Shown: positions 7,883 to 54,071 of the stretch, one piece after another | Layout: each line of letters starts with the position of its first letter | Position numbering within the stretch: the stretch's first letter is position 1 | Virus record (IMG/VR): IMGVR_UViG_3300033069_000976 | Span: 29,013-93,012 of that record | Source: a virus | Lineage: Duplodnaviria > Heunggongvirae > Uroviricota > Caudoviricetes > Crassvirales | Direction: 5' to 3' (one strand) | Length of the DNA stretch: 64,000 bases | Translations under genes and position numbers: made by a program | The notes under the pieces: model-generated | What the model saw: the letters and a program-made list of their open reading frames with translations, nothing else | What the model was told of the DNA's origin: nothing | The model's database searches: none

Positions 7883-7968
7883 TAGTAATAATTGACAAAG
7901 ATAGAAAGGAAATATGACATTTCCAAATTTTTCTACCTAATTAGTGAAAAAAGTGTAACTTTTATAGT

Positions 7969-22472: not shown

Positions 22473-22595
22473 ATAAGTTTTTTAGATGAAAAATATTCAC
22501 ACAAAGGTAAAACTCTTTTTTGACATAACCAAATAAAAAGTATACTTTTTTTGTTTATTAACAAAATAATGTAACTATTATAGTTTAAAAACAAA

Positions 22596-22641: not shown

Positions 22642-24198
22642 TTAAGGTGCTAAAGTTGTAGTAGTTGTAGTAGAAGTAGTCATTTCTCCAGATATACAAT
22701 CTCCACTTTCTGTAACATTTACACCCACAGGTGCTTCTACACTATCCTGTACAGCACATACATTGATTGTATCTCCTGCGGGTAGTATCACAGCAATAGT
22801 AGTTGAATTACCACATTGTAGCCAAGTAACTACTTGATCAGCCCCTGAGTCATTAAATATATCATATATAAATGTGGCACAAGTTGCCCCACAAGAACCT
22901 ACTAAAGCACAGAATTGGGCAAGTAGTACTGGACTACCAGCTATATAACTCATAGCAGTAGATAGTAATGTTGTGAAATCAATAGCTAAATCTAAATCTA
23001 CCTGTTCAGTAAAAGCGTTATAAGTAGGAGTTAAAGATATTCCTGATTCAGAATCTCCATTTAACTTCTCTATCAAAGAATCTGGATTAACATCACCTGG
23101 TCCAGCTATTAATAAATAGTCTTCAGTAGCATTTATAATAACTTGTCCAGGAGTTGTAGTATCATCCAGAGTTATATTAGTACCTGCTGTAAGCTTATCA
23201 ATCAGAGTACCTGGGGATAAATCAGAGCCATTACTAGCCACTAACCTATCATTATTTACTAATGGTACAGCTAACTCTAATGTTAAACCCCCGCAAGTAT
23301 CCATTGGATCTGTGGCTGTCAAAACAAAATCCGCAGAAACTGCTGTAATAAGGTCTTTTTTAATTACATTTATCTCTGTAACAATCACTTCTACAGCTTC
23401 TTGTAAATCAGTAGCTGATTCATCTAAGCAATCCCAGGTAATAAGGGTTGGGTCAAAAGGAAATGGTTCACAAACTTTGTCAGTTAGTAAACCTATCGTT
23501 TCAACTAGTGTATCTGCCACACCTCCTGCTAAACAGTTTAGACTGTTATTAAAAGTTGGTAATACAGCAGCAGCACTAGCTATTACTTTAACAGCACATA
23601 TTTGTGTGATAAGCTCTTCAAAACCTTCTGCTATAGTTGTTGGAGGACTAACTACTGTAAAGCAGCTATTCCAAGTTACAGAAGAAATATCTATAGCATC
23701 GTCAATATCTCCAAATTTAGCACAATATTTTGTAAGGACAGTTACTAAATTATCTACATTAGTTACACCAGCACTTACACAAGTTATACCTGGATTTGTA
23801 ATAGCATCCAGGGCATCTTGGACATCTGACTGGTAAGCAGGAAAAGTAACTGTTATAAAGGTATCTAAATCATCTGCTATTTCACAGGCATACCCTGTAA
23901 TAGCATCTACAAATTCAGCCTCAGTTGTTATAGCTTGACCAAACCAAGTTGGTAAACAATTGAATTGATAAGTAGAATAATCACCTGTAGCAGAACATAT
24001 CTGTTCATCTATTTTCTGTAAAGCAACTTCTAATGTATCTCCAGTTTCTATTCCAGAGCATGGAAGAGCTGGTCCTGTATAACATAGATATTTTACAGGT
24101 AAGCAGTTTTGTTGTTGACAATCCAGGCATTGGTTATTCACAAATGCTTGTATATCAAATGTTATAGGGAGTGTAGAAGAGCAATCTGGACAAGGCAT
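22642..24198 (-). CDS. Tail fiber/spike-like protein (518 aa) with a Cys-rich N-terminal anchor module and a poly-Thr C-terminal linker (…TTTTTTLAP)
   Basis: Its N-terminal C..C..YTG motif is shared with 24215..25270. Its C-terminal module (LQCGN..TINVCAVQD) is shared with 25282..25869. Strong bidirectional terminator directly downstream. Confidence 0.5.
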   Translation of the reverse strand: MPCPDCSSTLPITFDIQAFVNNQCLDCQQQNCLPVKYLCYTGPALPCSGIETGDTLEVALQKIDEQICSATGDYSTYQFNCLPTWFGQAITTEAEFVDAITGYACEIADDLDTFITVTFPAYQSDVQDALDAITNPGITCVSAGVTNVDNLVTVLTKYCAKFGDIDDAIDISSVTWNSCFTVVSPPTTIAEGFEELITQICAVKVIASAAAVLPTFNNSLNCLAGGVADTLVETIGLLTDKVCEPFPFDPTLITWDCLDESATDLQEAVEVIVTEINVIKKDLITAVSADFVLTATDPMDTCGGLTLELAVPLVNNDRLVASNGSDLSPGTLIDKLTAGTNITLDDTTTPGQVIINATEDYLLIAGPGDVNPDSLIEKLNGDSESGISLTPTYNAFTEQVDLDLAIDFTTLLSTAMSYIAGSPVLLAQFCALVGSCGATCATFIYDIFNDSGADQVVTWLQCGNSTTIAVILPAGDTINVCAVQDSVEAPVGVNVTESGDCISGEMTTSTTTTTTLAP

Positions 24199-32283: not shown

Positions 32284-32381
32284 ATGTAGTTTTTTGTTAA
32301 ATCTGATGTAAAAGTAAAACGTATATTTGGAAAAACCAAGAGACTTTTATATATTTCAAAAGTTTTTCGACTTATATAGCA

Positions 32382-32921
32382 TTAAAATATTTTCTCCCTC
32401 TCTGTGAACAATTTATAAGGTCTAACCTCTACTTTATCTTTAAATTTAAGGTCTAAAATCCTGACACCCATATCTTCAAAGTAAGGGGCTATTTTTCTCT
32501 GTACAGCATTCTTAGTAGTCTTCTTTTTTATATCTGTCCATATAATATCTTCAAGATGGTCTGATAATTCTGCTGCACCGAGTTGTAACATATTAGACCT
32601 GCTATCATTATTTTCCACAAGGAATTTTCTAATATCCTCAATCTCATAATGGATTATCATTCCTATTGATACTGGTTTACCATCTGCTGTAGTAATTGTA
32701 ATAGGTGGTATTTCCATAGTATCTGGTTTAACATGGTCTGTCATGGCATAATCTGCTACCATCCATTTCCAATATGTACCAGGTTTCAATGTTCTATGGT
32801 ATTTTCCCCATCTTAGTATTATAGCTTCCTCATAACCATTAACTACAACCCAAGGTTTTATGTAGTCTGCAAATCTATCTATTGTACTGGCAAGCCATTG
32901 TCCAAATTCAGAGATTCCCAT
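32382..32921 (-). CDS. Hypothetical head-morphogenesis protein (179 aa)
   Basis: ORF between the portal and the scaffold candidate; no protease motif recognised. Confidence 0.35.
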   Translation of the reverse strand: MGISEFGQWLASTIDRFADYIKPWVVVNGYEEAIILRWGKYHRTLKPGTYWKWMVADYAMTDHVKPDTMEIPPITITTADGKPVSIGMIIHYEIEDIRKFLVENNDSRSNMLQLGAAELSDHLEDIIWTDIKKKTTKNAVQRKIAPYFEDMGVRILDLKFKDKVEVRPYKLFTEREKIF

Positions 32922-32923
32922 AA

Positions 32924-35524
32924 TTATTTCTTTTTAGCAGCAGGTTTCTTGGCTTTAGCAGCTTTTAGTTGATTGTTTGAAATAGCAAGGTCATTTTTCA
33001 TATTCTCCCTCTCCACTTTTCTATCTTCAGCTTTTTGCTTATTGTCATTCATCATCTTCTGCATCTCCAGAGAAACCTTCTTATTTTCAATATCCCTCTT
33101 TGTAAGTATCTCCTGATTCTTTGCAGCTAAATTAGCAATCTCCATAATATCTGGAGAACCATCACCATCTGTATCAGTAGAAGGAGCTTGGAAATAAGTT
33201 TTTATCTGTGCCTCTGTTATCTTCGTATTAGCATTAAGGTCTGCTACATATTTCTTCATTTCCATATCTTGTTGGAAATGGGCTTCTTCTTGCTCCAGAG
33301 TAACTGCAACTCTATTATTCTCAGACTCTATCTTAGATTGTTCAAGCTGCATTTCCTGCTTCTTCATTTCCTCTTGCTTATCTCTGAGGTCTTTGAATAT
33401 CTTCTGCATCTGCCTAAGTGAGTTAGTACTGTATAGTACACTTACATCATAGATAGAAGCACCATTCTGCATCATAGCCTGAGATAACTGCCTGAACTCA
33501 TTCAGTAATTGTTGGTCTTCAGATCTGGAAGTAGCAAATATCTTTAAGTCCTTGAGTTTCAAGTCTTTACCTAAAACTTTAATAAAGGCTTGCTCACCAA
33601 GATTGGTGATGTAAGATATAGTACTTTCTTCTTTATTACTTTCTATATATTGAGCAGCATCAAGTACAGCCTGATATAACTGGTCTACTACATAATTATG
33701 TGCTGCAAAATATGGTTCTGTTTGGGCAAAGGATTGAACAAGAGCATTCTGGTTAGCTGTAGCTGTTTCTGTAGCTAAAGCTCCACCAAGTCTTTGTCTG
33801 TTCATACCAATAAGTTCCCAGCACTCACTTTTTAGTTGAGCAGCCAATCTATATCTTGATTCTATCTCTGAAGTCCTTGTTAAATCCAGTCTACCATATT
33901 GACTACCAAAAGATGTTCCACCTTTAGTATTCTCAGGAGAATCATCTACAAAGATAACCCCTCTTTTTCTCGCAGCTTCTTCCCATATTTCCAAGGCATC
34001 TTGACCATCCCCATCTTTAGGAGTTGGAATATGTCTGATAGACATAGCTTGTACAACACCTTTTTCTTTCTCTAGTAATTCATAGAGTTGGTTCATACAA
34101 ACATTGTACAATACCTGGAATGGTTTCATTAAGTCAACCAGGGATTTAGCAGTTGTATTCTTTAGTTCATGAGTTACCCCTATAATTGGGGAGTAATCCA
34201 ACAGTTTAAAAGGTTTCATAAAGAATATATCTGGACCAATCTTTGTACCCTTATACCATTGATTTATCCATCCCCATTGAATATCTATTTCATTAGGGCT
34301 ACCCTCTTTATAGTTCTCATCAACAAGCATTTGTTGAGGTTCTCCTTCTTCATCAATATAGGTAAGTAAACCTGTTTTCTTTTTAGATAAATGATAAGAC
34401 TGTACTACAGTATATTTATAACCAAAGGAAGCGGTAGTATTTGTTAAACCTAACCAGTCCCTTAATTCATCATTATTCTCTTTCATCTCAGACTCAATCA
34501 TCATTCTTTCCTGAAGAACAAGTCTGTTATATGTATCATATATGATACTATCTGGACCAACTTTACCAGAGTAAAGATTTGATTCCCTAACATTTATAAG
34601 ACCATAATCCTGATGGGCTTTTCTAAGATGCTCTATTTCTTCTAAGGATAATTCAGGGAATTTTTCTATAATCTCAGAAATTTCCATTACCTGAACAGTT
34701 CCATTAGCATATGGAACATTCTGCTCACCAGATACTCCTGAAGTATATTTAGCATCAGGTGTTCCTAATTGCCAATAATTCTTAGGATTAACTACCTCTA
34801 TATTAAATCCAGTTTTTGAGTTATCCTCAAATATATGAAAGTACTCTCTGGAAGATATGAGTAAATCCCTGAAAGCATCTTCTGATTTTTCTTTACAATT
34901 AAACTGTACCTTTAAAGCAGTTAAGACATGGTTACCCCATTTCTCCCCTTCAGTAGTAAAGGTATTCATATATTCCTGTACCTTCTCAATAGAAAGCTGT
35001 ACAAACTCTTCTTGGGGAATACTACTAACATCTTCCCCTCTCATCGCTAACTCATTCATTAACAGTTTCTTACCCTCCTGGATAATAAGCTGTTGCATAA
35101 TACCAGTCTTGAATTGTAGCTCTTCATCCTTAGAATCATCATCAAAAGCTCTTACTTTATGCAAGTCAGGTCTTTTAGATAATTCCCCTATCATTGTATT
35201 AACAGGAGGATTCAGTATTGGATAATGCTTTACATATTGTGGAAGCTCTGTATTAGCCATTAGTACTTCTGTAAAAGATTGTACTTCAGGCTGTTGCTGA
35301 TAAAAGTCTGTATAATCAATTATACCTTTCATCAGGTCATAGTTCTTCACAAATGTCCTCCTATGCTTTTTATATTGGGCATAGGCTACATTAGCAAAGT
35401 AATCCATTGTGTTCTTTATCCAAGATGGATCTTCTTTCTCCTTATCAGTTTTAAACTGGTCAGGGAATATATTTAAATAGGCGAACCTTACATTTTCTTC
35501 TTTGGTTACACGGGTAATAATCAT
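32924..35524 (-). CDS. Portal protein candidate (866 aa)
   Basis: Size and position immediately downstream of, and overlapping, the large terminase. The basic C-terminal tail is KAKKPAAKKK. Confidence 0.55.
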   Translation of the reverse strand: MIITRVTKEENVRFAYLNIFPDQFKTDKEKEDPSWIKNTMDYFANVAYAQYKKHRRTFVKNYDLMKGIIDYTDFYQQQPEVQSFTEVLMANTELPQYVKHYPILNPPVNTMIGELSKRPDLHKVRAFDDDSKDEELQFKTGIMQQLIIQEGKKLLMNELAMRGEDVSSIPQEEFVQLSIEKVQEYMNTFTTEGEKWGNHVLTALKVQFNCKEKSEDAFRDLLISSREYFHIFEDNSKTGFNIEVVNPKNYWQLGTPDAKYTSGVSGEQNVPYANGTVQVMEISEIIEKFPELSLEEIEHLRKAHQDYGLINVRESNLYSGKVGPDSIIYDTYNRLVLQERMMIESEMKENNDELRDWLGLTNTTASFGYKYTVVQSYHLSKKKTGLLTYIDEEGEPQQMLVDENYKEGSPNEIDIQWGWINQWYKGTKIGPDIFFMKPFKLLDYSPIIGVTHELKNTTAKSLVDLMKPFQVLYNVCMNQLYELLEKEKGVVQAMSIRHIPTPKDGDGQDALEIWEEAARKRGVIFVDDSPENTKGGTSFGSQYGRLDLTRTSEIESRYRLAAQLKSECWELIGMNRQRLGGALATETATANQNALVQSFAQTEPYFAAHNYVVDQLYQAVLDAAQYIESNKEESTISYITNLGEQAFIKVLGKDLKLKDLKIFATSRSEDQQLLNEFRQLSQAMMQNGASIYDVSVLYSTNSLRQMQKIFKDLRDKQEEMKKQEMQLEQSKIESENNRVAVTLEQEEAHFQQDMEMKKYVADLNANTKITEAQIKTYFQAPSTDTDGDGSPDIMEIANLAAKNQEILTKRDIENKKVSLEMQKMMNDNKQKAEDRKVERENMKNDLAISNNQLKAAKAKKPAAKKK

Positions 35525-38500
35525 CCGAATATTTTTAATTGTTTCTTTCCTGTAAAATTTGTTGATCCAGTAAAGATTTTTGAATTTCCTTTAATTGGGT
35601 TTTTAGCATAATAAGATTGCATTCTTGGGTCAGTTTTGTCACTCCCTACTGCACCTATAACAGGGTCTAATTTATAAGCCAAAGCAACTGCTAATTCAGC
35701 AGCAATTACCCTATCTGTATTTACTTTATGCTTAGGGTCTTTAGAGAATTTAGTAATTTCTTCCAGAAGCATTGGGTCAGGTATTCTTGATACACCTGTA
35801 GTTTCTTTTATAATACTTCCATTTTCATCTTTCTCTATATCTATTATTTCATCCAGGTAGGATTTGAATGTACCATCCAGAAAATTTCTAATTGCGGTAG
35901 CAGACCTATGTATTCCTTTCTTTCTCTTTACAGTAGTATTTGGTACATATTCTTTTAACCATTCTGGCTGGTCTTCTAAATAATGCCCATCATTTCTGGC
36001 AATCATAAAGTCAATAAAAGACATCTCATCATTCTCACACAGGGTTCTGGCATTATAATACTTAATCAGATTCCTGGCATTCTCATTCCATTTCTCTTTA
36101 CTCTGTGGTCTTGCAGCATAGCAAGCTACAAACATATTCTGATATTTCTCTGAAGAAATACCATGCATTCTTTTATAAATATAAACTACTCCAAGTGAAT
36201 CTGAGTATTCTGCTTCACCCTGTCTGTAAGGGTCAACCCCAGCTACATACAATCCAAAAGGAGGGTGTTCCACGGGAAACTCCCATATCTGAATAGGAGC
36301 ATCAGTATCTTGAGTCTTAACAGGAAACTCAGTTATAAATGGTTTATCAGAGAATTCATGTACTATTTTTTCTCCGTTATGGAATATCTTAACAGGTGTC
36401 CCTGTTACACCTAAATCTCTTAACCTTGTTTGTTGAGCTTTAGCAGCCTCTACATTAAAATCATTATGTGTTAAAACCAAGAAGCTATCTGAAGGTTTCA
36501 GGGGCCAGTAGGCTTTAAACTTCAGAATTGTTTTTGAGTTACCTGATTTAACAGCTTTATCATACTCTGGTTCCCACCACTCTCTTAAGGCTCTTTCTTC
36601 ATTAGAAACCAGTATAGTTATATTTTGTAAATCTGGATGGTCTATACCAAGATATTCAGCCAGAGTCTTTGGTTCCTTATAAGCCATTTTAGCTCTGGTA
36701 GCAGCTATAAATCTTCCTATCTTTCCACCACCTTCCCATTCATTCTCAAACTCAAGCATGTTATAGGAATACGGATGGTAGAAAACTTCCGCTGCTTCAG
36801 CACCAACTTCCATATCACCACCAGTTCCACATAACATAACCAAACAAGATGGTTTATTACCTCCACCAGACCACCAGCAACCATCACTATCTTTTATACA
36901 ACCAATAAGATTAGGTAGAGTACCAATCTCATCAATAAGGTGAAAAGAAGGTCTAGTACCATTAGCAGCCATAGTATCAGTACCAGCCTGATAGTTCCTG
37001 ACAAGTATTTTTGAATTGGAAGATTTTGGATTTGGTAAGTTAGATGATTTATCTTTCCAACCAGCTTTAATCTCTTTCTTCCAGTCCGATACAAGTCTTT
37101 GCTTTTTAAATATTGGGTGAATATTAAGCAACCCATCTTCTATCTTATCCGTAGCTAGTTTGATATAATTAGCTGCTCCACCAGATATTACACACTCACT
37201 ATTACTATAAAATGTATATTGATGTCCAGCACAAGATCCTGCAATAACTGAATTATGTGTTACTGTATATCCATCAGTTAAAAAACATTTTGACTTATTA
37301 TCTACTGTAATACAAGTTGCCTGTTCTTTACCAAAATACTCTATATTTACTATAGATGTCTTATCCCCTCTATACTTACCTATATTATTTAACTTTCTTG
37401 GCAGTTTGAATATTGGCTTATCTGTCATAAGATTAAACCTATATTTATCTTTAGCTAAAGTTACTACACCTTTATTTTTATAACTATTTTTTGTCTTTTT
37501 GATAGTTACCTGAATACCTAAACTTCTTACTAATCTATAAAAACCATTTGCAATATTTACATCTGTTGTACAAAATTCTATTACTCCATTTTTCCCACAA
37601 CAACCATCTGTATCCATTATTCCTCTTAATAATTCCATTCTTTGCTCTACAGAGGAATAAAAATAACAATTAGGTATATGTTTATTATTTATTAAATCTA
37701 GCTCTTGAAATTTAGATAAGAGAGAATTTCTTAGTCCACCTTTCATTCCATTACTTATATTATAAGAAATACCATGTTTCCTTACTTGTAAATTATTTTC
37801 TTCTGCATATGTATATACAAAATCTGAAATTTCTTTATCTATTGTAGTTATTCCTAAAGTTCTTTTATTACCATCTCCTAACCATAATCCTAAAAAATAA
37901 GGATTTATTGGTAAATAATTCTCAGAATATTCAACAGGTTTATTATTTGGTATAAAATACCTATATGCCAAACCTTTACTATTTTTATAAGATTTTTTCC
38001 TATTTATCAGGTAGTCAGTTTTTATAGAAGAAAGATTTTTATCCTCATATTTACGGGATGAACTATTCCAAACTCTCCATATATGATTATCACAAGAATA
38101 TAAAACCCTTCCATCTCTTAGGGTAATTTTATATAAGTCTATTAATCCTTGTGGGTAAACCCCAGTAATAGTTGTTAATTTACCATCATCCCCAAATATC
38201 TTATCACCTATTTTAGCATTACCAATTAATATTTCTCCATTATTTGTATATAGAGTGGCTGTATTTATAAGTGCTTTACCAAAGTCCCTGCTACCTACTA
38301 ATGGATAGAATTTACCTTCTTCATTACATCTTTCCAGGTCATTAAATATGTCCCAATCTATATCCCTTAATAAAGGTGTTTCAATTTTCCTTACCTTTTT
38401 CTTATTAGGTAATTCTACATACATTGCAATCTTCCAATAGACCGTATGAAAATACAGTCTGCCGGGAACATGAACTGCCCCATCAGCCAAGTAAAACCCA

Positions 38501-38619
38501 TTCATACACCTGTCTTTCTCTTTTTTCCAGTATTCTATATAAGTCTCCTTATCTGCTGGATTATCAGTTAGTATAGGTTCTACCTGGTCTTTAAACCAGA
38601 TATTTGTAGTTGTTTGCAT
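35521..38619 (-). CDS. terL: Terminase large subunit interrupted by an in-frame intein (1032 aa precursor)
   Basis: Walker A, VGSRDFGK|…|SVIAG, is split by the intein. The C-terminal nuclease-like region has acidic motifs. Gene order terL-portal follows. Confidence 0.7.
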   Translation of the reverse strand: MQTTTNIWFKDQVEPILTDNPADKETYIEYWKKEKDRCMNGFYLADGAVHVPGRLYFHTVYWKIAMYVELPNKKKVRKIETPLLRDIDWDIFNDLERCNEEGKFYPLVGSRDFGKALINTATLYTNNGEILIGNAKIGDKIFGDDGKLTTITGVYPQGLIDLYKITLRDGRVLYSCDNHIWRVWNSSSRKYEDKNLSSIKTDYLINRKKSYKNSKGLAYRYFIPNNKPVEYSENYLPINPYFLGLWLGDGNKRTLGITTIDKEISDFVYTYAEENNLQVRKHGISYNISNGMKGGLRNSLLSKFQELDLINNKHIPNCYFYSSVEQRMELLRGIMDTDGCCGKNGVIEFCTTDVNIANGFYRLVRSLGIQVTIKKTKNSYKNKGVVTLAKDKYRFNLMTDKPIFKLPRKLNNIGKYRGDKTSIVNIEYFGKEQATCITVDNKSKCFLTDGYTVTHNSVIAGSCAGHQYTFYSNSECVISGGAANYIKLATDKIEDGLLNIHPIFKKQRLVSDWKKEIKAGWKDKSSNLPNPKSSNSKILVRNYQAGTDTMAANGTRPSFHLIDEIGTLPNLIGCIKDSDGCWWSGGGNKPSCLVMLCGTGGDMEVGAEAAEVFYHPYSYNMLEFENEWEGGGKIGRFIAATRAKMAYKEPKTLAEYLGIDHPDLQNITILVSNEERALREWWEPEYDKAVKSGNSKTILKFKAYWPLKPSDSFLVLTHNDFNVEAAKAQQTRLRDLGVTGTPVKIFHNGEKIVHEFSDKPFITEFPVKTQDTDAPIQIWEFPVEHPPFGLYVAGVDPYRQGEAEYSDSLGVVYIYKRMHGISSEKYQNMFVACYAARPQSKEKWNENARNLIKYYNARTLCENDEMSFIDFMIARNDGHYLEDQPEWLKEYVPNTTVKRKKGIHRSATAIRNFLDGTFKSYLDEIIDIEKDENGSIIKETTGVSRIPDPMLLEEITKFSKDPKHKVNTDRVIAAELAVALAYKLDPVIGAVGSDKTDPRMQSYYAKNPIKGNSKIFTGSTNFTGKKQLKIFG
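37252..38274 (-). mobile_element. Intein (about 341 aa) with a LAGLIDADG homing-endonuclease domain, inserted in the terminase P-loop between GK and S
   Basis: Block A after Ala1 (ALINTATLYTNNGEILIGNAKIGDKIFGDDG); block B SCDNHIW; LAGLIDADG motifs YFLGLWLGDGN and LLRGIMDTDGC; blocks F/G …CFLTDGYTVTHN followed by Ser+1. Confidence 0.7.
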
Positions 38620-39543: not shown

Positions 39544-39912
39544 TTAAGTTCCATCAGGTTTACTTTCTTTAACATAGGATGTCCATTTTATCTCCTGTTT
39601 ATTATCAGGATGTGATCTGTTATAAATATCAGCTCCGCAGGAACTACTTAATGAAGCTGTCTTTGTCTTTATGGGACAGGAACAAAGTGTACAAAATTCC
39701 TCTATCCTGGAGAATTTTTTACCAGACAACAATTCTGCATTCTTAGACATAAACGGGCAACCAGCACAAATAGTTCTTCTCTGCATGATTATCTCTTTCT
39801 CATCTTCAGGAAGATTCTCATGATTTAGTTCATTCCAGATACCCTCCATTACCTGCTTTGGATTTTTTAATCCCCTCTTAGCCATTTCAAAATACTCAGA
39901 TAGTAAACTCAT
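39544..39912 (-). CDS. Cys-rich (putative zinc-binding) protein (122 aa)
   Basis: CAGCPF…CTLCSCP cysteine clusters. Confidence 0.4.
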   Translation of the reverse strand: MSLLSEYFEMAKRGLKNPKQVMEGIWNELNHENLPEDEKEIIMQRRTICAGCPFMSKNAELLSGKKFSRIEEFCTLCSCPIKTKTASLSSSCGADIYNRSHPDNKQEIKWTSYVKESKPDGT

Positions 39913-40190
39913 TTTACTCTTTTATTTAAATTATCAACTAAAGTAGTTAATGTTTCTAATTTCTCTGGATTATCTTTAACCCTTTCAATACCTTTTGAAA
40001 TACCATTTATGTACTTCTTTAGTTTATTTTGAGAAAGATAAATTTTTCCAAATCCAGAGAATTCCAACTCATCATGTATCTTGACAGCTTTTAAAGCATC
40101 CTCTCCTTGAAAAGCTACCACTTTAAAAACAGTATCTTCAGAAAGTTCCATAGCTGTAGCTACTTGTTTAATAAGTACTTCCTTATTCAT
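39909..40190 (-). CDS. Hypothetical protein (93 aa)
   Basis: ORF with 4-nt overlaps. Confidence 0.4.
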   Translation of the reverse strand: MNKEVLIKQVATAMELSEDTVFKVVAFQGEDALKAVKIHDELEFSGFGKIYLSQNKLKKYINGISKGIERVKDNPEKLETLTTLVDNLNKRVK

Positions 40191-40530
40191 GTCCCATATT
40201 TAGTTGTAACAATATACCGTCTTTAATATTAAACAGTAGCTGTGGACTGACCACTATTCTTCTGTTGTCCTTTGTTAAATAACCTTGTTTAACTAACTTA
40301 GTTACGGTTTTCCTCACTGACTTATAAGTACTTTTATATACATCTATAAAATCATTCCTTTGGTCTCCCCTAGCTATATTTCCTTTTATAGCTGTATAGG
40401 CTAGTATTCTTATCTCTAATGGACTTAACTTAAAGTTGTTCAGTACATCTAGTATACTATAGAACTTTACAGCCAGTTCAAACTCATCTTTAAACTTTTT
40501 CCTTATCTTTATAGCTACAAAATTAGTCAT
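40183..40530 (-). CDS. Hypothetical protein (115 aa)
   Basis: ORF preceded on its strand by the CTTAAATAGCATTA box. Confidence 0.4.
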   Translation of the reverse strand: MTNFVAIKIRKKFKDEFELAVKFYSILDVLNNFKLSPLEIRILAYTAIKGNIARGDQRNDFIDVYKSTYKSVRKTVTKLVKQGYLTKDNRRIVVSPQLLFNIKDGILLQLNMGHE

Positions 40531-40561: not shown

Positions 40562-40924
40562 TTAATTTGATTTAATGCTATTTAAGTTAGAATTTTTTAC
40601 AAACTCAGCTAATTTGGCTTCAAAAGCATCCAATCTTTCCTCAAATTTCTTAAAGTCCCATGAACATAGTATATCTCCATGACTCTTGGTAAAGACTAAA
40701 GTACACTGAAAGCCTTTAGAGAATACATCTTCAAAAGCAGTCTCTGGCGGATACATTTCCTGCCACCCCTCTATTTCACTATATGGTAGCTTTATCCAAC
40801 TGTCTATAGTTGGAATATCCAAACTCCTACTATCTGATAACTGTGCTTCTTTTTCTTTTAGGTCAGCAAGATAAGCATCTGTAACCCTTACTGGAAATTT
40901 AAAAAACCTTTCTGAATATTTCAT
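40562..40924 (-). CDS. Hypothetical protein (120 aa)
   Basis: ORF. Confidence 0.4.
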   Translation of the reverse strand: MKYSERFFKFPVRVTDAYLADLKEKEAQLSDSRSLDIPTIDSWIKLPYSEIEGWQEMYPPETAFEDVFSKGFQCTLVFTKSHGDILCSWDFKKFEERLDAFEAKLAEFVKNSNLNSIKSN

Positions 40925-42640: not shown

Positions 42641-43078
42641 TTACATTCCATATTGATTTCCTTTATAATTCTTTTTACCATTTATTTTAGCATGATTCTC
42701 ATTTTCTAGTTTAGAAACCCATTCTAAATTATCTACATGATTGTTATTTTTATCACAATCTTTATGATTTATTTCTATCTTATTTTCTGGGTTTAATAGG
42801 AAATATTCTCCTACCAATCTGTGAACTAAGAACTTTTTAGATTTTCCATTCTTTTTTAATTCCACTATTAAATAGCCAGTATTATTTTTAAATGGTAATT
42901 TCTCCTTTGCTTTAGAAATTCTCTCTGATTTTGTTCCAAATCTATTACCACATTTAATAACTCTTGATAATGAGATTATTTTTCCAATATTTGAAATTTG
43001 ATAGAAACCCTCATAACCTTTAATATCTTTCCAAAATGTAGATGATATAACTTCTTCCATACTAAGTTTATTCTCCAT
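42641..43078 (-). CDS. HNH homing endonuclease (NUMOD4 + HNH_3 type, 145 aa)
   Basis: WKDIKGYEGFYQISNIGKI (NUMOD4) and INHKDCDKNNNHVDNLEWVSKLEN (HNH). Confidence 0.65.
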   Translation of the reverse strand: MENKLSMEEVISSTFWKDIKGYEGFYQISNIGKIISLSRVIKCGNRFGTKSERISKAKEKLPFKNNTGYLIVELKKNGKSKKFLVHRLVGEYFLLNPENKIEINHKDCDKNNNHVDNLEWVSKLENENHAKINGKKNYKGNQYGM

Positions 43079-43544
43079 AAAATGGTGTTATATGTATTTG
43101 TTTTAATATCTGTCTTAGTTCATTGATACATTTACATTCTCCTTCAAATAATGTTTCAGCTTTGTCAAATTTTTCTCCACCAGTAAAGTCTCCCTTTATT
43201 TTTAACTTATGGTCGCGAAAACCATAATTCAAAAAAACATTATAACACTTATATCCTCCAAAATTCTGTAAACCTGTACCAAATCTTTTATCTTCATTTA
43301 TCTCAAACCAATGGTCTATAGATTTAGCTTTTAAAATAAATCCACAACTTTCAATTTGTTCTTTAGTTAGATAAGGAACTCTTATTTCATTTCTATCTAC
43401 CCATTTAGACAAATCTTCTAATCTGTGAAATTTACAGATGATTTCTTTTTTCCACTCTACAGGCATTATATCCTGTATCTCACATTCATACCCAACTCTT
43501 ATATCTGAAATTTCAGGCTGAAAATATTTTAAATTGTCTTCCAT
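43068..43544 (-). CDS. Hypothetical protein (158 aa)
   Basis: ORF between the two HNH genes. Confidence 0.4.
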   Translation of the reverse strand: MEDNLKYFQPEISDIRVGYECEIQDIMPVEWKKEIICKFHRLEDLSKWVDRNEIRVPYLTKEQIESCGFILKAKSIDHWFEINEDKRFGTGLQNFGGYKCYNVFLNYGFRDHKLKIKGDFTGGEKFDKAETLFEGECKCINELRQILKQIHITPFYGE

Positions 43545-44068
43545 AGTCTTTTTGTTTTAATTCCATAAATAGTATTGTAATTCATATTTGGATAAAAGTT
43601 TTTATGAACTTCAGAAATTTTCATAGTTTTACACTTTTCTCTTATATCTAAAACTTGTTCTTTTGTTAATTTAGAGTTTATATTTTTCTCCCCATCCTGC
43701 CAAGTTTTGTCTTTTAATCCCAAATTCAATGCATGATTTATATTCTCAGAAGGTGTTACCCATTCTAAATTTGAAACCATAGCATTTGCTTTTATTCCAT
43801 CTTTATGATTTACCTGTGCTTTATTCTCAGGATTCTTTAAAAATACTTCTGCAACTATTCTATGTATAGTCTTAGATAATTGCTTTCCTCCTCCACATAA
43901 AGTAATTGCTGGATAACCATCATTAGTTAATCTACATTTCATTATGTAAGCTTTTCTTCTTATAAGTCCAGTATTAGATACTTCATAATATTCTTCATAA
44001 CCAGGAATATCTTTCCATATTTCATCTTCTATAGATGATGTAAAGTATTTATTTTCCATATTCCTCAA
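43529..44068 (-). CDS. HNH homing endonuclease (NUMOD4 + HNH_3 type, 179 aa)
   Basis: WKDIPGYEEYYEVSNTGLI and VNHKDGIKANAMVSNLEWVTPSEN. Confidence 0.65.
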   Translation of the reverse strand: MRNMENKYFTSSIEDEIWKDIPGYEEYYEVSNTGLIRRKAYIMKCRLTNDGYPAITLCGGGKQLSKTIHRIVAEVFLKNPENKAQVNHKDGIKANAMVSNLEWVTPSENINHALNLGLKDKTWQDGEKNINSKLTKEQVLDIREKCKTMKISEVHKNFYPNMNYNTIYGIKTKRLWKTI

Positions 44069-44399: not shown

Positions 44400-44466
44400 A
44401 TAAGTTTCCAGTTTAAATTATACACAAAGTTAGGACTTTTTTGCCAAACCATTTGTTAATGAATTG

Positions 44467-44841
44467 TTAATCCTTATTACAATATTTATCTTCTAAGGTT
44501 TTTAATACATTAAGAACTTCTATAATATCATCCATCTCAGGATAATAGAAGTAACCGAGATTATCAGAAGCCTCATCTCCAAAGTGTAAATGCCTTATAC
44601 CATCAAAATAAGCTGTTCCATGTAAGAGTACCTCATACTCTGTATTCTCGTCAAGGAAGTCTGAATTCATCGGGTAAGATACCCTATTAACCTGTATAAA
44701 GGTAAAACCACACTTATCTCCTAATAGATCATCTCCCTCTTCTTTCCAGTATAATCTGGAACCATCAGATAATTGTTCCCAGTGAGATTTTGTTTTAATC
44801 CTATTAAGAACATTCTCTAAAGTTGCATGTTTAATTTCCAT
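44467..44841 (-). CDS. Hypothetical protein (124 aa), first gene of the minus-strand block
   Basis: ORF adjacent to the divergent intergenic region. Confidence 0.4.
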   Translation of the reverse strand: MEIKHATLENVLNRIKTKSHWEQLSDGSRLYWKEEGDDLLGDKCGFTFIQVNRVSYPMNSDFLDENTEYEVLLHGTAYFDGIRHLHFGDEASDNLGYFYYPEMDDIIEVLNVLKTLEDKYCNKD

Positions 44842-45053
44842 ATAACAAAGATACTACTTTAAAATGGTTTAGAAAATTTTTTTTAAAATTTTTTTTGAAA
44901 AATATCTATGGGAATTTTTTTTTTAAAATATTGAAAACCAAAGATATACATCGGAAAGAGGGTGAATCCTCCCTCACCACCCCCTCTATAGTTTGTGGAT
45001 GGGTGTATTCCCCCGTCATTAACTTATTATTTAATTAACTAAATTTAATCAAA

Positions 45054-45515
45054 ATGGGAAATTTTGAAAGGTTTAAACTGGCTAACCGTAAAGCTGGTAA
45101 TGTTTCATTCTATGAGAAGGATGAATTGTTGGAAGACCTCAACCCAAGCACAGTGAGCTTGTTCTACAGTGCCAAAGCTGGATTATGGTACATGAGGCTG
45201 TCCAATGGTACTGATACTATCCAGATAGGCATCATGGATGAGTGTAAGCCAGAAAAGAATGTGCAGGACGCTGCTGATGAAATCAATGCTGCTGCTGGTG
45301 TTCTGAAGGTTGACCATAAGAACAAGAAGGCTTTGGCTACTATTGCCAAGCTTGAAGGGCTTGTTACAGGCTTCATAACAGAAACTTTCGACAGTGAAGA
45401 GAACTTCCTGTATGGTGGAGAGTCTGAGAAAGGATACTGGTTGAGAATCAGCCCTAATGCCCCAGGAACAAATACTCCTGTTGCAGAGCTTCAGTATGAG
45501 GCTGTTGTAGTGTAA
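45054..45515 (+). CDS. Hypothetical protein (153 aa) with markedly higher GC and a different codon usage from its neighbours
   Basis: ORF followed directly by a hairpin plus T-run terminator; frequent ctg/gtg/gac/aag codons. Confidence 0.55.
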   Translation: MGNFERFKLANRKAGNVSFYEKDELLEDLNPSTVSLFYSAKAGLWYMRLSNGTDTIQIGIMDECKPEKNVQDAADEINAAAGVLKVDHKNKKALATIAKLEGLVTGFITETFDSEENFLYGGESEKGYWLRISPNAPGTNTPVAELQYEAVVV

Positions 45516-45521
45516 TTAATT

Positions 45522-45554
45522 GAGAGAGAGTGACTCTATCACTCTCTTTCTTTT
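45522..45554 (+). terminator. Rho-independent terminator
   Basis: GAGAGAGAGTGA/TCACTCTCTTTC stem followed by TTTT. Confidence 0.6.
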
Positions 45555-45730
45555 ATATATATGGGTGGGATATTATATATCTTAGGGTGGGCTATATAAA
45601 ATTGTTGGTATCTCACGGCTTATAAAACACACTATTGATTTTGTAAGTCATTATTAATCAATTAGTTACAATATATTATAAATAATCACTATAAATAGCC
45701 TTGTATTACATAGTACTAGGTATTTATTTA

Positions 45731-45783
45731 TTGATAATCAATAAATATTTAGTGATTATCAATTATAATTCGTTGATTATCAA
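45731..45783. promoter_or_regulatory. Three phased palindromic sites TTGATAATCAA / GTGATTATCAA / TTGATTATCAA, centres about 20-22 bp apart (operator-like array)
   Basis: The perfect 19-bp palindrome TTTATTGATAATCAATAAA plus two further half-palindromic copies. A 4th copy at 46268..46278 shares the 15-mer GTTGATTATCAATGA with site C. Confidence 0.45.
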
Positions 45784-45857
45784 TGAAAATAGTGGAGTAA
45801 ACACATCTACTGCTTAATAACAATTAAATCAAATAATGTAAATCAATCAACTTTAGT

Positions 45858-45872
45858 CCTTAAATAGCATTA
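45858..45872 (+). promoter_or_regulatory. Conserved box CCTTAAATAGCATTA, copy 1. Further copies lie at 46333..46347, 47986..47999 and on the minus strand at 40573..40585.
   Basis: A 13-14-mer identical in 4 places, each 2-40 nt upstream of a start codon or an RNA region. Confidence 0.4.
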
Positions 45873-46261
45873 AAAACAAGTGTGGGTTGTATCTGTATTA
45901 CTTAGTCATGAATAAGTAGTATAAGCTCTAATAAATAAGCTCTGGTAATCTGTCATGGATTATTAACTTATCATTGTAAAGAGTGTATTATAACATATAG
46001 TTCTAATTAGTATGTTATAGCAGTAATGGATATATTACAGGGAATATACCTGCGAATACTCATTCTGTCCTAGATACTAAGGATATAGGTTATGATGACA
46101 AAATTTAGTGGAATAACTAGGTCATAACTTTCCTGAAGCAGATAGTGCTTAACAAATCAAGACTATCCTAAGGTTCTGACATATAGACTGGTGTTACCTG
46201 GAATATGTTAATAATATAACTAGGTTTATTGTAGATGTGTACCTAGTTATATTATTTTTAT
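45873..46261 (+). ncRNA. Candidate non-coding RNA (about 390 nt) between the conserved box and an intrinsic terminator
   Basis: No ORF of 20 or more codons. It ends in the hairpin ATAACTAGGT…ACCTAGTTAT plus ATTATTTTTA at 46215..46261. Confidence 0.35.
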
Positions 46262-46349
46262 AACTAGTTGATTATCAATGAGTTCAACACCTCTTCAGCT
46301 TATAAGGCATTAATAAAAACACCTAAAAACTAATAAATCAAACCTTAAA

Positions 46350-46511
46350 TAGCATTACAATGAAAAAGCTAGCTTATCAACAGTTTATCTCTGATCTTAA
46401 ACAAGATAAAGACTTTATATCTTTTAAGACTAAAGCTCATGATATTAAGAGTGGTTTTAGTTATGGTGTTGTAGTTGTTAATACTAATAGATTTCTTATT
46501 GAAAAACCTTT
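46350..46511 (+). CDS. Small hypothetical protein (53 aa)
   Basis: ATG 2 nt after the CCTTAAATAGCATTA box. Confidence 0.35.
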
Positions 46512-47566: not shown

Positions 47567-47990
47567 TATGAAAAATTTTAAAGAGTTAAGAAAATACTTG
47601 GCTGGTATACCAGCCATAAACTATGGGGGTTGTGGATATGCCGCCTTATTTATGTATCAATGGTTAAAGATACATAAACCAAAGTTGGAAGTAGAAATTG
47701 TATTTGGATATTGTTATGATACACCTTCTTATCATGACAATGATGCATATTTTAAGGGTGTGCATAGTATTACAAACTCTTGCAGTCATGCTTTTCTGAA
47801 AATTAAAAAGAAACATATTGACTGTAAAACAAATATAGATGTAAGACATTATCCATTTAATCACAATATTTCTGATCCTAAATTTGTATTAAAAGCTTTG
47901 GAGGATACAGATAATTGGAATTCAAGCTTTGACAGGAGTTGGGTGAGAATAATGGAGAACAACATTGGCATCAAATTATCGGACATTTAA
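47529..47990 (+). CDS. Hypothetical protein (153 aa)
   Basis: ORF; its stop overlaps copy 3 of the conserved box. Confidence 0.45.
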   Translation: MLTKRIYHPCSYNMKNFKELRKYLAGIPAINYGGCGYAALFMYQWLKIHKPKLEVEIVFGYCYDTPSYHDNDAYFKGVHSITNSCSHAFLKIKKKHIDCKTNIDVRHYPFNHNISDPKFVLKALEDTDNWNSSFDRSWVRIMENNIGIKLSDI

Positions 47991-48016
47991 ATAGCATTAA
48001 CACTAAAAACTAAAAA

Positions 48017-48394: not shown

Positions 48395-48816
48395 ATATAT
48401 TCCCAAAGTTGTCAGAGTGAGGGAAAAACTACAGTTAAAGACTCTATATTAGAGAACCAGAAACTTCTTAGTTATTAGTCTTAGGGGACAATCAGCTCGA
48501 GATGCCTAAGACGTGCTTAGTGTGAGAATCACTAACAAGGAGAATAAATAGAAATAAACTGAATCAGCTAACATGTAGATGGAAACATCATTAGGGTGAA
48601 GGGACATAGTAATATGTACAGACCAGCTAGACTCTGGAATAGCTAACCAGACAAAAAGGAATTCTTTTCATTAATGAGCCTTTTTTTGACACTAGGACTT
48701 GGAGTTACGAGAAAATATTAAAATGTTGTGGAAAGCTCCAAGCCTTCCCTATCAATTCTCATTAACATTTTAATACTTATTCATATGGTAGACATCAACG
48801 CTCTCATGAGCATAGA
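48395..48816 (+). ncRNA. ORF-free, relatively GC-rich region of about 420 nt with multiple stem-loops; candidate structured RNA
   Basis: GTCTTAGG…CCTAAGAC and TTAGTG…CACTAA hairpins. GC clearly above that of the flanking coding DNA. Confidence 0.3.
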
Positions 48817-49018: not shown

Positions 49019-49037
49019 TCGAAACAAATTGACAATT

Positions 49038-49072
49038 AAAGAGCGTTGGTAGAATAATCAACGCTCTTTTTC
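49038..49072 (+). terminator. Rho-independent terminator
   Basis: AGAGCGTTG…CAACGCTCT followed by TTTTT. Confidence 0.6.
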
Positions 49073-49359
49073 CATCTATTATTGTATTACTGTGTAAATC
49101 AGTAACAAAGAGAAAGGGTACAAAATTAACTGGGCATAGTTGGTATTAACCCAACATACTAAGCTGGTAGTATAAGTGACTATAAACAGTTTACCTTTTT
49201 CTTGGGGCTTATATCTTTGATTATTAGTGAGTTAGCTTACGAGACTAACTTTAAATGAGTCATTCACTGTTAATTCCAGCTTTAGATATAATGGAAACCT
49301 AGGCAATGAAGCAGCTTGATAATCAAAGTATTAGTGCGACACAAATAAAAACTAAACAT

Positions 49360-53355: not shown

Positions 53356-53744
53356 AAATATAAATTATGAGAAACTTACAACTTTGGTACATCAGACATT
53401 TTAAAATTATTAACATCAAGAAAGCTAATCAATTACATTTAAAACATTTTCGTAATATATATGGAAATGGTATAAATCATTTGAATTGCAGATCTTTATG
53501 GGTAGATAAACAAAATAGAGTGTACAGAGTTCAACAATTATTAATAACTAAATCTATTTGATATGGAACATTTTTTCAAAATAGTAGATAAAAGAGATGG
53601 GGAAAGTATTTATGATTCAAGAACTCCTTATCATACTGAAGCAATAGCTCTTGAACAAGGGGAAGAATTGCGTAGAGAATTAAGAGTATCTTCTGTAAAT
53701 TATAAAGTAATAGCTGAACCTGCTATGCAGGAAGCTTAAAATAA

Positions 53745-54045
53745 ATGGTAATCGCAGACACTTCTAGAGAGGTGATTAGAAGAAAGGGGTTCGACTCCCC
53801 TGTCCTCCACAATAGCTATGGCTAGTATTGCCAAGTCCTATATCCTTGAGTAAGATATAGGCAAATTAATTGGGGGACATTTGGCACTTGATTCTAATAT
53901 TACGACTAGGAGAGATTATCAGTAAACCTAAAAGGCAGAGTAATCTCCTTCAAAAGGTCAGCTATGAGAATAGCTGCCTAATTTGCGAAGTAATTCCTAC
54001 GAAACTGGGATTAAACCCCTCATCATTTGGTGAGGGGATTTTTAT
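53745..54045 (+). ncRNA. Candidate structured non-coding RNA (about 300 nt) beginning with the tRNA-like element and ending at a strong intrinsic terminator (54014..54045)
   Basis: ORF-free and GC-richer than coding. Several stem-loops (CCTATATC…GATATAGG; GGAGAGATTA…TAATCTCC). Terminator CCCCTCA…TGAGGGG followed by TTTTT. Confidence 0.35.
53785..53809 (+). other. tRNA 3'-fragment-like element: T-arm AGGGG-TTCGACT-CCCCT, acceptor 3' strand GTCCTCC and discriminator A. No matching 5' half is present.
   Basis: Canonical G53, TTCGA, C61 and an acceptor-like 7-mer. No GGRGGRY partner within 80 nt upstream. Confidence 0.4.
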
Positions 54046-54071
54046 CATTTCACCAATAAATTAACATAAAA

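Follow-up and report, generated by a model that had tools for sequence, protein, structure and literature searches.

The question raised by this locus is what a short word that recurs just upstream of gene starts on both strands of a phage genome does there, and what might read it. The locus lies near position 45,860 of the 64,000-nt stretch of viral DNA analysed here (the window). The initial annotation had listed four identical copies of a 14-mer, and had offered three readings: a promoter specific to the phage, an operator, or a site of RNA processing. The longest exact word common to the four sites was the 13-mer TTAAATAGCATTA, found at 45860, 46345 and 47987 on the plus strand and at 40585..40573 on the minus strand. 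At this length the count of four stands, but the exact 14-mer CTTAAATAGCATTA occurs only three times in the window (n = 3; copies 1, 2 and 4 in Table 1). The site of copy 3 reads TTTAAATAGCATTA, with one mismatch to the 14-mer, and is exact at the 13-mer level. A fifth copy, CTTATATAGCATTA, with one mismatch and antisense to the genes around it, had been missed. As for the positions first given, 47986 and 40573 were right, 45858 was off by one and 46333 should read 46344. The distances claimed from copies 2, 3 and 4 to the ATGs that follow them were confirmed (2, 17 and 42 nt).

Chance expectation for TTAAATAGCATTA was obtained from 100 dinucleotide-preserving shuffles of the window. The 13-mer was counted four times against 0.01 expected, and none of the 100 shuffles reached four. 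A chance origin of the motif is excluded, in agreement with the earlier argument that the word is too long and too specific for chance in 64 kb. Scanning the window with a weight matrix built from related copies returned exactly five sites, with scores of 19.6–23.3 and the next best at 12.5, and all five were located at gene boundaries. The family logo of the motif is T-W-A-W-ATAGCATTA. In the window and 17 relatives, whose DNA is ~85% coding, 30 of 39 exact ATAGCATTA 9-mers lay at gene boundaries. Reading of the sequence revealed no self-complementarity of the motif and no conserved flanking inverted repeat. No conserved -35-like partner accompanied it, and no conserved element was present within 40 nt upstream in 29 and 58 aligned copies. 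Among the matches listed for the exact 14-mer in IMG/VR, there were single chance matches alone.

Table 1. Motif copies and associated features of the window.
Feature	Position	Strand	Remarks
Motif copy 1, CTTAAATAGCATTA	45859..45872	+	Exact match; heads non-coding unit in early region
Motif copy 2, CTTAAATAGCATTA	46344..46357	+	Exact match; 2 nt before ATG 46360
Motif copy 3, TTTAAATAGCATTA	47986..47999	+	Overlaps stop of ORF 47568-47990; 17 nt before ATG 48017
Motif copy 4, CTTAAATAGCATTA	40573..40586	-	Class A; 42 nt before ATG 40530; overlaps last codons of a gene
Motif copy 5, CTTATATAGCATTA	32371..32384	+	Class B; final TTA complements the stop codon of Band_7 gene 32382-32921
-7-like box, TACTTTTACAT	32306..32316	-	Host-type promoter of 395-aa/major-capsid operon
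-33-like element, CTCTTGG	32336..32342	-	Same capsid-operon promoter as TACTTTTACAT
115-aa protein gene	40183..40530	-	First gene after copy 4; opens operon running into terminase
HU/IHF-like DNA-binding protein	39909..40190	-	Pfam Bac_DNA_binding, E = 2.5e-6; second gene of operon
Intrinsic terminator	45522..45550	+	Closes first rightward gene (45054-45515), upstream of motif-headed units
Candidate non-coding RNA	45873..46262	+	Downstream of copy 1; ends in intrinsic terminator
Three operator-like palindromes, ATTGATWATCAAT	45730-45742, 45751-45763, 45772-45784		74-128 nt upstream of copy 1
Fourth palindrome, GTTGATTATCAAT	46267..46279		65 nt upstream of copy 2

The window comes from a divergent crAss-like phage with a Bacteroidota-type host. 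Matches to crAss families were obtained for its portal, major capsid and terminase genes; among cultured phages, the closest portals share only 23–28% identity with its own, and no near-identical DNA was found among GenBank phages. The gene layout is that of Cellulophaga phage phi14:2, with structural and packaging genes running leftward from ~44.8 kb and many small early-type ORFs running rightward from 45.05 kb. Several leftward operons carry canonical Bacteroidota promoters of the type TTTG-N19-TAnnTTTG (44842-44875, 44400-44466, 22473-22520 and 7883-7968), and these match the phi14:2 middle promoters that we extracted. The first 1,775 codons of a giant ORF occupy positions 1-5329 of the minus strand and run off the window. 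In the close relative L156 this ORF encodes 4,200 aa, and its GGDFDVDK segment aligns with the phi14:2 gp66 catalytic region (E = 1.5e-11). The 4,200-aa protein's C-terminal part, with its DFDVD motif, is the virion RNA polymerase homologue of the lineage. A 1,543-aa protein was also considered for this role and rejected, since neither similarity to gp66 nor any match in PDB or Pfam was found; PHROGs linked gp66 to no family. According to published work on phi14:2, its early genes are transcribed by the virion polymerase gp66 and its middle and late genes by the host polymerase, long early non-coding RNAs are abundant, and no common motif was found upstream of early transcripts (10.1101/2020.03.07.982082).

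The early region of the window is headed by copies 1–3. The ~390 nt after copy 1 contain no ORF and close with a perfect 16-bp hairpin (stem 46210-46225/46241-46256) followed by a T-run, the whole terminator region spanning 46210-46261. This candidate non-coding RNA had a fold z-score of −3.3, better than 100 of 100 shuffles. In a search of the window against Rfam 15 at gathering score, tRNA-Cys was the sole match, and nothing credible appeared in 44800-46500 at E up to 5. The candidate is about 94–97% identical in relative L133, where the terminator stem carries a compensatory A-T to G-C change. The 75 nt upstream of copy 1 are ~97% conserved between the two genomes, and the 12 nt directly after the motif vary. 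The palindrome ATTGATWATCAAT was also found near the motif in L133, L134 and L143. Copy 2 is preceded by the terminator of the non-coding unit and by the fourth palindrome. At this copy, L133 keeps the motif and CAATG, and the gene downstream is swapped for another, with the junction of the replacement right after the motif and ATG. The first early protein, of 153 aa, was rejected as a reader of the motif because it is only 35–40% identical even in the closest relative. Searches for relatives of the 153-aa and 236-aa early proteins found none, and exact-protein look-ups returned mostly short contigs or no match.

Relatives were collected in three IMG/VR scans. The terminase scan gave 21 loci of 25–96% identity, 19 of which were analysed at 40–96%; the portal scan yielded no fewer than 563 relatives, of which 80 loci were kept, and the scan with the 115-aa protein encoded after copy 4 gave 349 (80 kept). 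Same-species contigs L123–L132 carry the motif and are too similar to inform. The suggestion to look for the word in related phages gave a positive answer, with conservation at syntenic positions and with a fixed orientation within each positional class. The motif core was invariant where terminases are only 40–60% identical and the flanks are saturated with change.

Class C, which includes copies 1–3, comprises one to three copies heading the early region, all co-directional, and was sampled in 58 unique contexts from ~45 genomes. The core ATAGCATT was always followed by A in these 58 contexts. The first ORF-opening ATG followed at an offset of 0 (12 contexts), 2–3 (6), 13–15 (12) or 18–25 nt (11), and in 38 of the 58 a start codon lay 0–25 nt downstream. 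The offsets of 0, 2–3 and 13–15 nt recur in many separate lineages. These offsets reproduce the leaderless or short-leader geometry of host-type -7 boxes in the window phage and phi14:2. Terminators precede the motif-headed early units, and no TTTG/TAnnTTTG promoter was found for these units, whereas other operons of the window have canonical ones. The window, L134 and L308 share one overall order: GC-rich island, first early gene, terminator, motif, short or long non-coding stretch, second motif, genes. Close relatives differ in how many early copies they have. An upstream partner, GTGTRACCC, accompanies ~25 class C copies, ends 59–62 nt upstream of them and is not a sigma-A promoter.

Class A corresponds to copy 4, whose syntenic equivalent was found in 11 or more relatives of the first set and in 32 of 80 of the second. 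Its members are co-directional with the genes, often stand directly after an intrinsic terminator and lie 38–40 or 47–50 nt upstream of a TAnnTTTG box. In L142, L147, L135 and others, the forward copy is located between the terminator and a host-type promoter. The box is absent in the window and in L133. The sequence TAATTTTG, 48 nt after copy 4, was discarded as a -7 box, as it lies inside conserved N-terminal codons of the 115-aa gene, and no host-type -7 box was found in register with copies 1–4 of the window. The operon after copy 4 encodes the 115-aa protein, the HU-like protein, several small proteins, the terminase, the portal and the Band_7 protein. Homologues of the 115-aa protein (30–40% identity) occupy the same place in more than 60 loci. 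Winged-helix Pfam matches were obtained for 12 of 16 members of the family, all sub-threshold, and the homologue in cr10_1 is annotated as ‘transcriptional regulator’. The single-sequence AlphaFold model was poor (pLDDT 42), and a word-indexed homologue search returned the protein itself alone. Judged by sequence, this is a probable winged-helix DNA-binding protein, conserved family-wide, and a candidate reader of the motif; the HU/IHF-like protein may be an architectural partner.

Class B, represented by copy 5, is the most conserved copy across the family. It was present at 12/13, 77/80 and 77/80 loci, always antisense and at the end of the gene after the portal, and phi14:2 and Leptolyngbya phage Lbo-JY46 have it too. 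Its distance to the -7-like box was 59–61 nt in 12 of 13 lineages and exactly 60 nt in 74/77 and 73/77 further loci, with a spacer of variable sequence and a 5′ UTR of 25–43 nt. In the window, TACTTTTACAT is separated from the ATAGCATT core by 59 nt (58 nt to the 10-mer), inside the family range of 59–61 nt. The family consensus of the capsid-operon box is TAcTTTTACA, with a CTTTG element 19 nt upstream. This box departs from the -7 consensus by an A where G is expected.

More distant phages keep the antisense setting. In the complete genome of Lbo-JY46 (125,312 bp), the only clean copy, TAATATAGCATTA, overlies the stop codon of the portal gene in antisense orientation, 46–47 nt from a TAACTTTGTA box. 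In phi14:2, TTTTAATAGCGTTTA occurs twice, antisense on the terminase and portal stop codons, each copy exactly 63 nt from the TATATTTG -7 box of a late gene (g093 and g092). The core variant ATAGCGTT replaces ATAGCATT in phi14:2 and L152. The motif was absent from the upstream regions of phi14:2 g070, g075, g108 and g110, which have middle promoters, from the early regions of phi14:2 and Lbo-JY46, and from the vicinity of the portal gene in cr10_1, FpV4 and ProJPt-Bp1. Since phi14:2 and Lbo-JY46 carry antisense copies only, class B is taken to be the oldest setting, and the early copies an expansion in the clade of the window.

Sequence comparison points to a DNA-level phage signal that most likely steers phage transcription, and the motif is very probably a site read by a phage transcription protein. 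The initial annotation thus held up as to a phage-specific cis-regulatory signal; promoter and operator are both viable, and the RNA processing site is not. Tentatively, we rank first the reading of the motif as a phage-specific promoter core, with the transcription start predicted at its 3′ edge, and second its reading as the binding site of a regulator.

In the promoter reading, a conserved phage transcription protein would recognise T-W-A-W-ATAGCATTA on double-stranded DNA. The four near-identical copies of the window would be promoter cores, with transcription starting at the A after ATAGCATT. Three of them would head early units, namely the ~390-nt structured non-coding RNA and the gene blocks beginning at 46360 and 48017, and the fourth (copy 4) would head the operon that runs from the winged-helix protein into the terminase. 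We infer that transcription starts at the motif itself, and that the reader is either an injected virion RNA polymerase or a phage factor, such as the 115-aa protein, that directs the host polymerase. The antisense copy 5 would couple the early programme to the late promoter. This reading would fit the four copies of the window and all class C copies, since these are co-directional, head units that have no host-type promoter, are followed by leaderless or short-leader ATGs and an invariant A, and mark a point after which (motif plus ATG) genes have been exchanged. A candidate polymerase adds to this: the lineage has a virion polymerase homologue, phi14:2 relies on such an enzyme for its early genes, and that of P23-45 works from promoters with a conserved motif. 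Several findings speak against the promoter reading. The most conserved copy is antisense to its genes, and Lbo-JY46 and phi14:2 keep such promoter-linked copies only, their early regions being devoid of the motif. The authors of the phi14:2 study found no common early motif (10.1101/2020.03.07.982082). Copies beside structural operons stand at a strict distance from host-type promoters, which is more typical of an activator or architectural site, and the motif has no -35-like partner and fits the consensus of neither the sigma-70 -10 box nor the Bacteroidota -7 box.

A narrower form of the promoter reading takes ATAGCATTA as the promoter of the crAss-type virion RNA polymerase, which would produce leaderless early mRNAs and the abundant early non-coding RNA. 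We consider this version unlikely. In it, the antisense copy, pointing toward the early region, would be the entry point of the polymerase; entry there would link the control of the late promoter, which the host polymerase uses, with early transcription or with genome entry driven by transcription.

Only slightly less favoured than the promoter core, and likewise tentative, is a site bound by a phage-encoded protein, for example the 115-aa winged-helix protein, perhaps together with the HU-like protein. From a distal upstream position such a protein could activate the sigma-A-type promoters of structural operons, read by the host RNA polymerase, and on early starts it could shut the units off, by analogy with the early-to-late switch of p4/p6 in phage phi29. 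Classes A and B would fit this reading. The distances to host-type promoters (~39, ~49 and 60 nt) are fixed and differ by steps of roughly one helical turn, and the 60-nt spacing is held while the spacer sequence and the 5′ UTR length vary. The weak -7 box of the capsid operon, with A for G, points the same way, as activator-dependent promoters often have a -7 box off consensus. In phi14:2 the copies are placed 63 nt from the boxes of late g092 and g093 and none at middle promoters, both phi14:2 and Lbo-JY46 carry promoter-linked copies alone, and the forward copy is followed by two genes, one for a conserved winged-helix protein and one for an HU-like protein. Against this, a host-type core promoter in register is missing from four of the five copies of the window. 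An additional early promoter would be required upstream of each early copy, where only the motif is conserved. The regulator site by itself explains neither the clusters of start codons at 0, 2–3 and 13–15 nt nor the invariant next A. Since the GTGTRACCC partner, which is not a sigma-A promoter, is found at 59–62 nt in ~25 early copies, the ~60-nt spacing is not specific to host-type promoters and may belong to a bipartite motif unit. In addition, cr10_1 and FpV4 have a homologue of the winged-helix protein but lack the motif.

The remaining explanations are far weaker. The exchange of the gene after copy 2 in L133, with its junction after the motif and ATG, and the variable number of early copies between close relatives would suit a passive repeat with no role in expression, such as a recombination linker, a module boundary or a recently spread selfish sequence. 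We consider this improbable: the core is invariant at 40–60% terminase identity amid saturated flanks, orientation and spacing are fixed, and there are neither transposon-like ends nor an associated nuclease target, the two HNH genes of the window not being adjacent to motif copies.

Marginally less credence is given to the view that TAWWATAG is a degenerate -7 box and the motif a variant promoter for host sigma-A. The G of TAG does lie 4–7 nt before several ATGs, as does the G of TAnnTTTG in the window phage and phi14:2. However, either two of the three T positions of TAnnTTTG are mismatched or the register is wrong, no TTTG element is found 17–21 nt upstream, and the invariant GCATTA falls outside the -7 box. 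Consistent with the earlier remark that the word does not match the Bacteroidota -7/-33 consensus, the best register agreed at four of six specified positions and had no -33 element; the failed -7 match and the missing -33 element together argue against a host sigma-A promoter. Sigma-54 and IHF consensus sequences, compared by eye, did not fit in spacing or bases.

Least probable is a signal acting in mRNA, as a processing site or an enhancer of translation initiation: the early motif does directly precede start codons (0–25 nt in 38/58 contexts), but we reject an RNA-level role because class A copies of several lineages lie in the untranscribed spacer between the terminator and the -33/-7 elements and the most conserved class lies on the non-coding strand, opposite to all surrounding genes, and copy 1, moreover, precedes a non-coding stretch.

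The motif appears not to have been described before: literature searches on its sequence, on crAss early promoters and on a late-specific upstream element in crAss-like phages found no description. CrAss-like phages are among the most abundant viruses known. To our knowledge, no promoter has been reported for the crAss-like virion RNA polymerase, and we know of no account of how crAss middle and late genes, both read by the host polymerase, are told apart. The motif bears on both questions. The first early units are marked by it, and in at least several hundred genomes, among them those of the cultured phages phi14:2 and Lbo-JY46, it has a locked position relative to the capsid-operon promoter. 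Being short, near-invariant and easily synthesised, it makes both questions directly testable, and it can serve as an annotation landmark for transcription-unit boundaries in the clade.

Comparison with known systems places the motif between several types of site. The window shares with phi14:2 the TTTG-N19-TAnnTTTGTA type of middle and late promoter, used by host sigma-A (10.1101/2020.03.07.982082), and at structural operons the motif is physically linked to such promoters. In contrast to the elements of the phi14:2 tripartite consensus (A-tract, TTTGnA, TAnnTTTGTA), the motif lies outside it, 40–65 nt further upstream, and its early-region copies are not accompanied by such a promoter.

Start-associated sequences of cluster K mycobacteriophages are 13-bp repeats just upstream of start codons, with a part resembling a ribosome-binding site, and are thought to act in translation. 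The early copies resemble them as a 13-bp word, present in few to many copies per genome, co-directional and immediately upstream of start codons. The motif differs in having one class outside transcripts and another on the opposite strand. In hosts of the Bacteroidota type, there is no reliance on Shine-Dalgarno pairing.

Distal activator sites include those of CRP at class I promoters, the orientation- and distance-dependent boxes of MarA/SoxS/Rob, and that of phi29 p4 at the A3/A2b switch. The motif resembles these in standing at roughly helical-phase distances (from the -7 box to the site centre, ~43, 53 and 64 nt) and in having a particular distance for each orientation. The core of the target promoter is weak, and neighbouring genes encode a small DNA-binding protein and a histone-like protein as candidate binders. 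Unlike them, most copies in the window have no core promoter in register, and a fixed, helically phased distance to one holds for only one of five. CRP and p4 sites are also dyads, whereas the motif is asymmetric.

Phage and virion polymerase promoters offer the other close comparison. The T4 late promoter TATAAATA, read by gp55, represents the type served by a minimal sigma factor. In phage P23-45, a conserved AT-rich motif characterises the pre-early promoters used by the virion polymerase (10.1101/2022.12.01.518664). The sequence of our motif is unrelated to those of T7-type, T4 late, P23-45 and N4 promoters, and it lacks the hairpin potential of the last. Unlike these promoters, one conserved copy runs antisense at a locked distance from a host-type promoter. 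No common early motif was seen in phi14:2, the one crAss-like phage studied, and an early-gene motif is not a feature of every phage that keeps the word, as Lbo-JY46 and phi14:2 have promoter-linked antisense copies only. With these promoters the motif nevertheless shares a short, highly conserved and asymmetric sequence with no -35 partner, a position immediately ahead of the presumed start, the direction of the genes, clustering where the early region begins, and a putative cognate virion polymerase encoded in the same lineage.

Upstream of the copies of the recurrent 13-14-base motif that lie at the head of the early region and are co-directional with the early genes, an element of approximate sequence ~GGTG.AGTGTRACCCAT is conserved in about 25 lineages (loci L266-L319 of relatives). 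Between its end and the first 'proper' early copy of the motif lie 59-62 nt. A related sequence is present in the window. The signal may be bipartite, with the conserved element as its other half. Repeats of the palindrome TTGATWATCAA were confined to the early region, where they usually precede motif copies by 13-130 nt; the palindrome resembles an operator site bound by a dimeric regulator.

The first rightward gene is immediately preceded by an island of high G+C content that contains inverted repeats; the genome as a whole has 31% G+C. The position of this island is kept across the family, and it could be either a replication origin or an early promoter of a different, perhaps hairpin, type. 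Additional long non-coding gaps were observed in the early region. The gap at 53740-54071 includes a T-arm and an acceptor end (GGTTCGACTCCCC...CCA) like those of a tRNA, for which ARAGORN made no call.

A degenerate and interrupted form of the motif, perhaps a variant copy or one that has decayed, was located directly behind an intrinsic terminator; the TACCTTTG box that belongs to the 22642-24198 operon follows ~57 nt downstream.

Coordinates of the additional features in the window and in loci of relatives (L-numbers)
Feature	Window	Strand	Relatives and remarks
Giant ORF	1-5329	-	Extends past window edge; close-relative counterpart L156 6599-19201
TATAATAGTTACATTA	22570-22590	-	Motif-like form
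Terminase large subunit	35521-38619	-	
Two NUMOD4/HNH_3 homing-endonuclease genes	42641-43078, 43529-44068	-	Within leftward middle block
G+C-rich island (e.g. GAGGGTGAATCCTCCCTCACCACCCCCTC)	~44950-45000		L134 ~7130-7200; L308 ~7730-7920
Palindrome	45730-45784, 46267-46279, 49316-49326		Also in L133, L134, L143
GGAGTAAACACATC	45795-45812		
Non-coding gaps	48395-48727, 49019-49305, 53740-54071		

The terminase large subunit comprises 1,032 aa in the window versus 689-698 aa in relatives. An insert of ~340 aa lies directly after the Walker-A sequence GSRDFGK and contains a LAGLIDADG motif; it resembles an intein that carries a homing endonuclease. The leftward middle block, which holds the two NUMOD4/HNH_3 genes, is shorter in relatives such as L125.

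Among the more distant phages, 'Leptolyngbya phage Lbo-JY46' (PP438436.1, L157-L159) has 31.6% G+C and crAss-like structural genes. Bacteroidota-type TAnnTTTGTA boxes precede its terminase and capsid-operon genes. The cyanobacterial host annotation of this phage may need checking.

The counterpart of the giant ORF in the close relative encodes 4,200 aa. The C-terminal part of this protein aligns to the virion RNA polymerase of the Cellulophaga crAss-like phage phi14:2, including the catalytic DFDVD. The polymerase appears to be joined to an N-terminal region resembling gp67.
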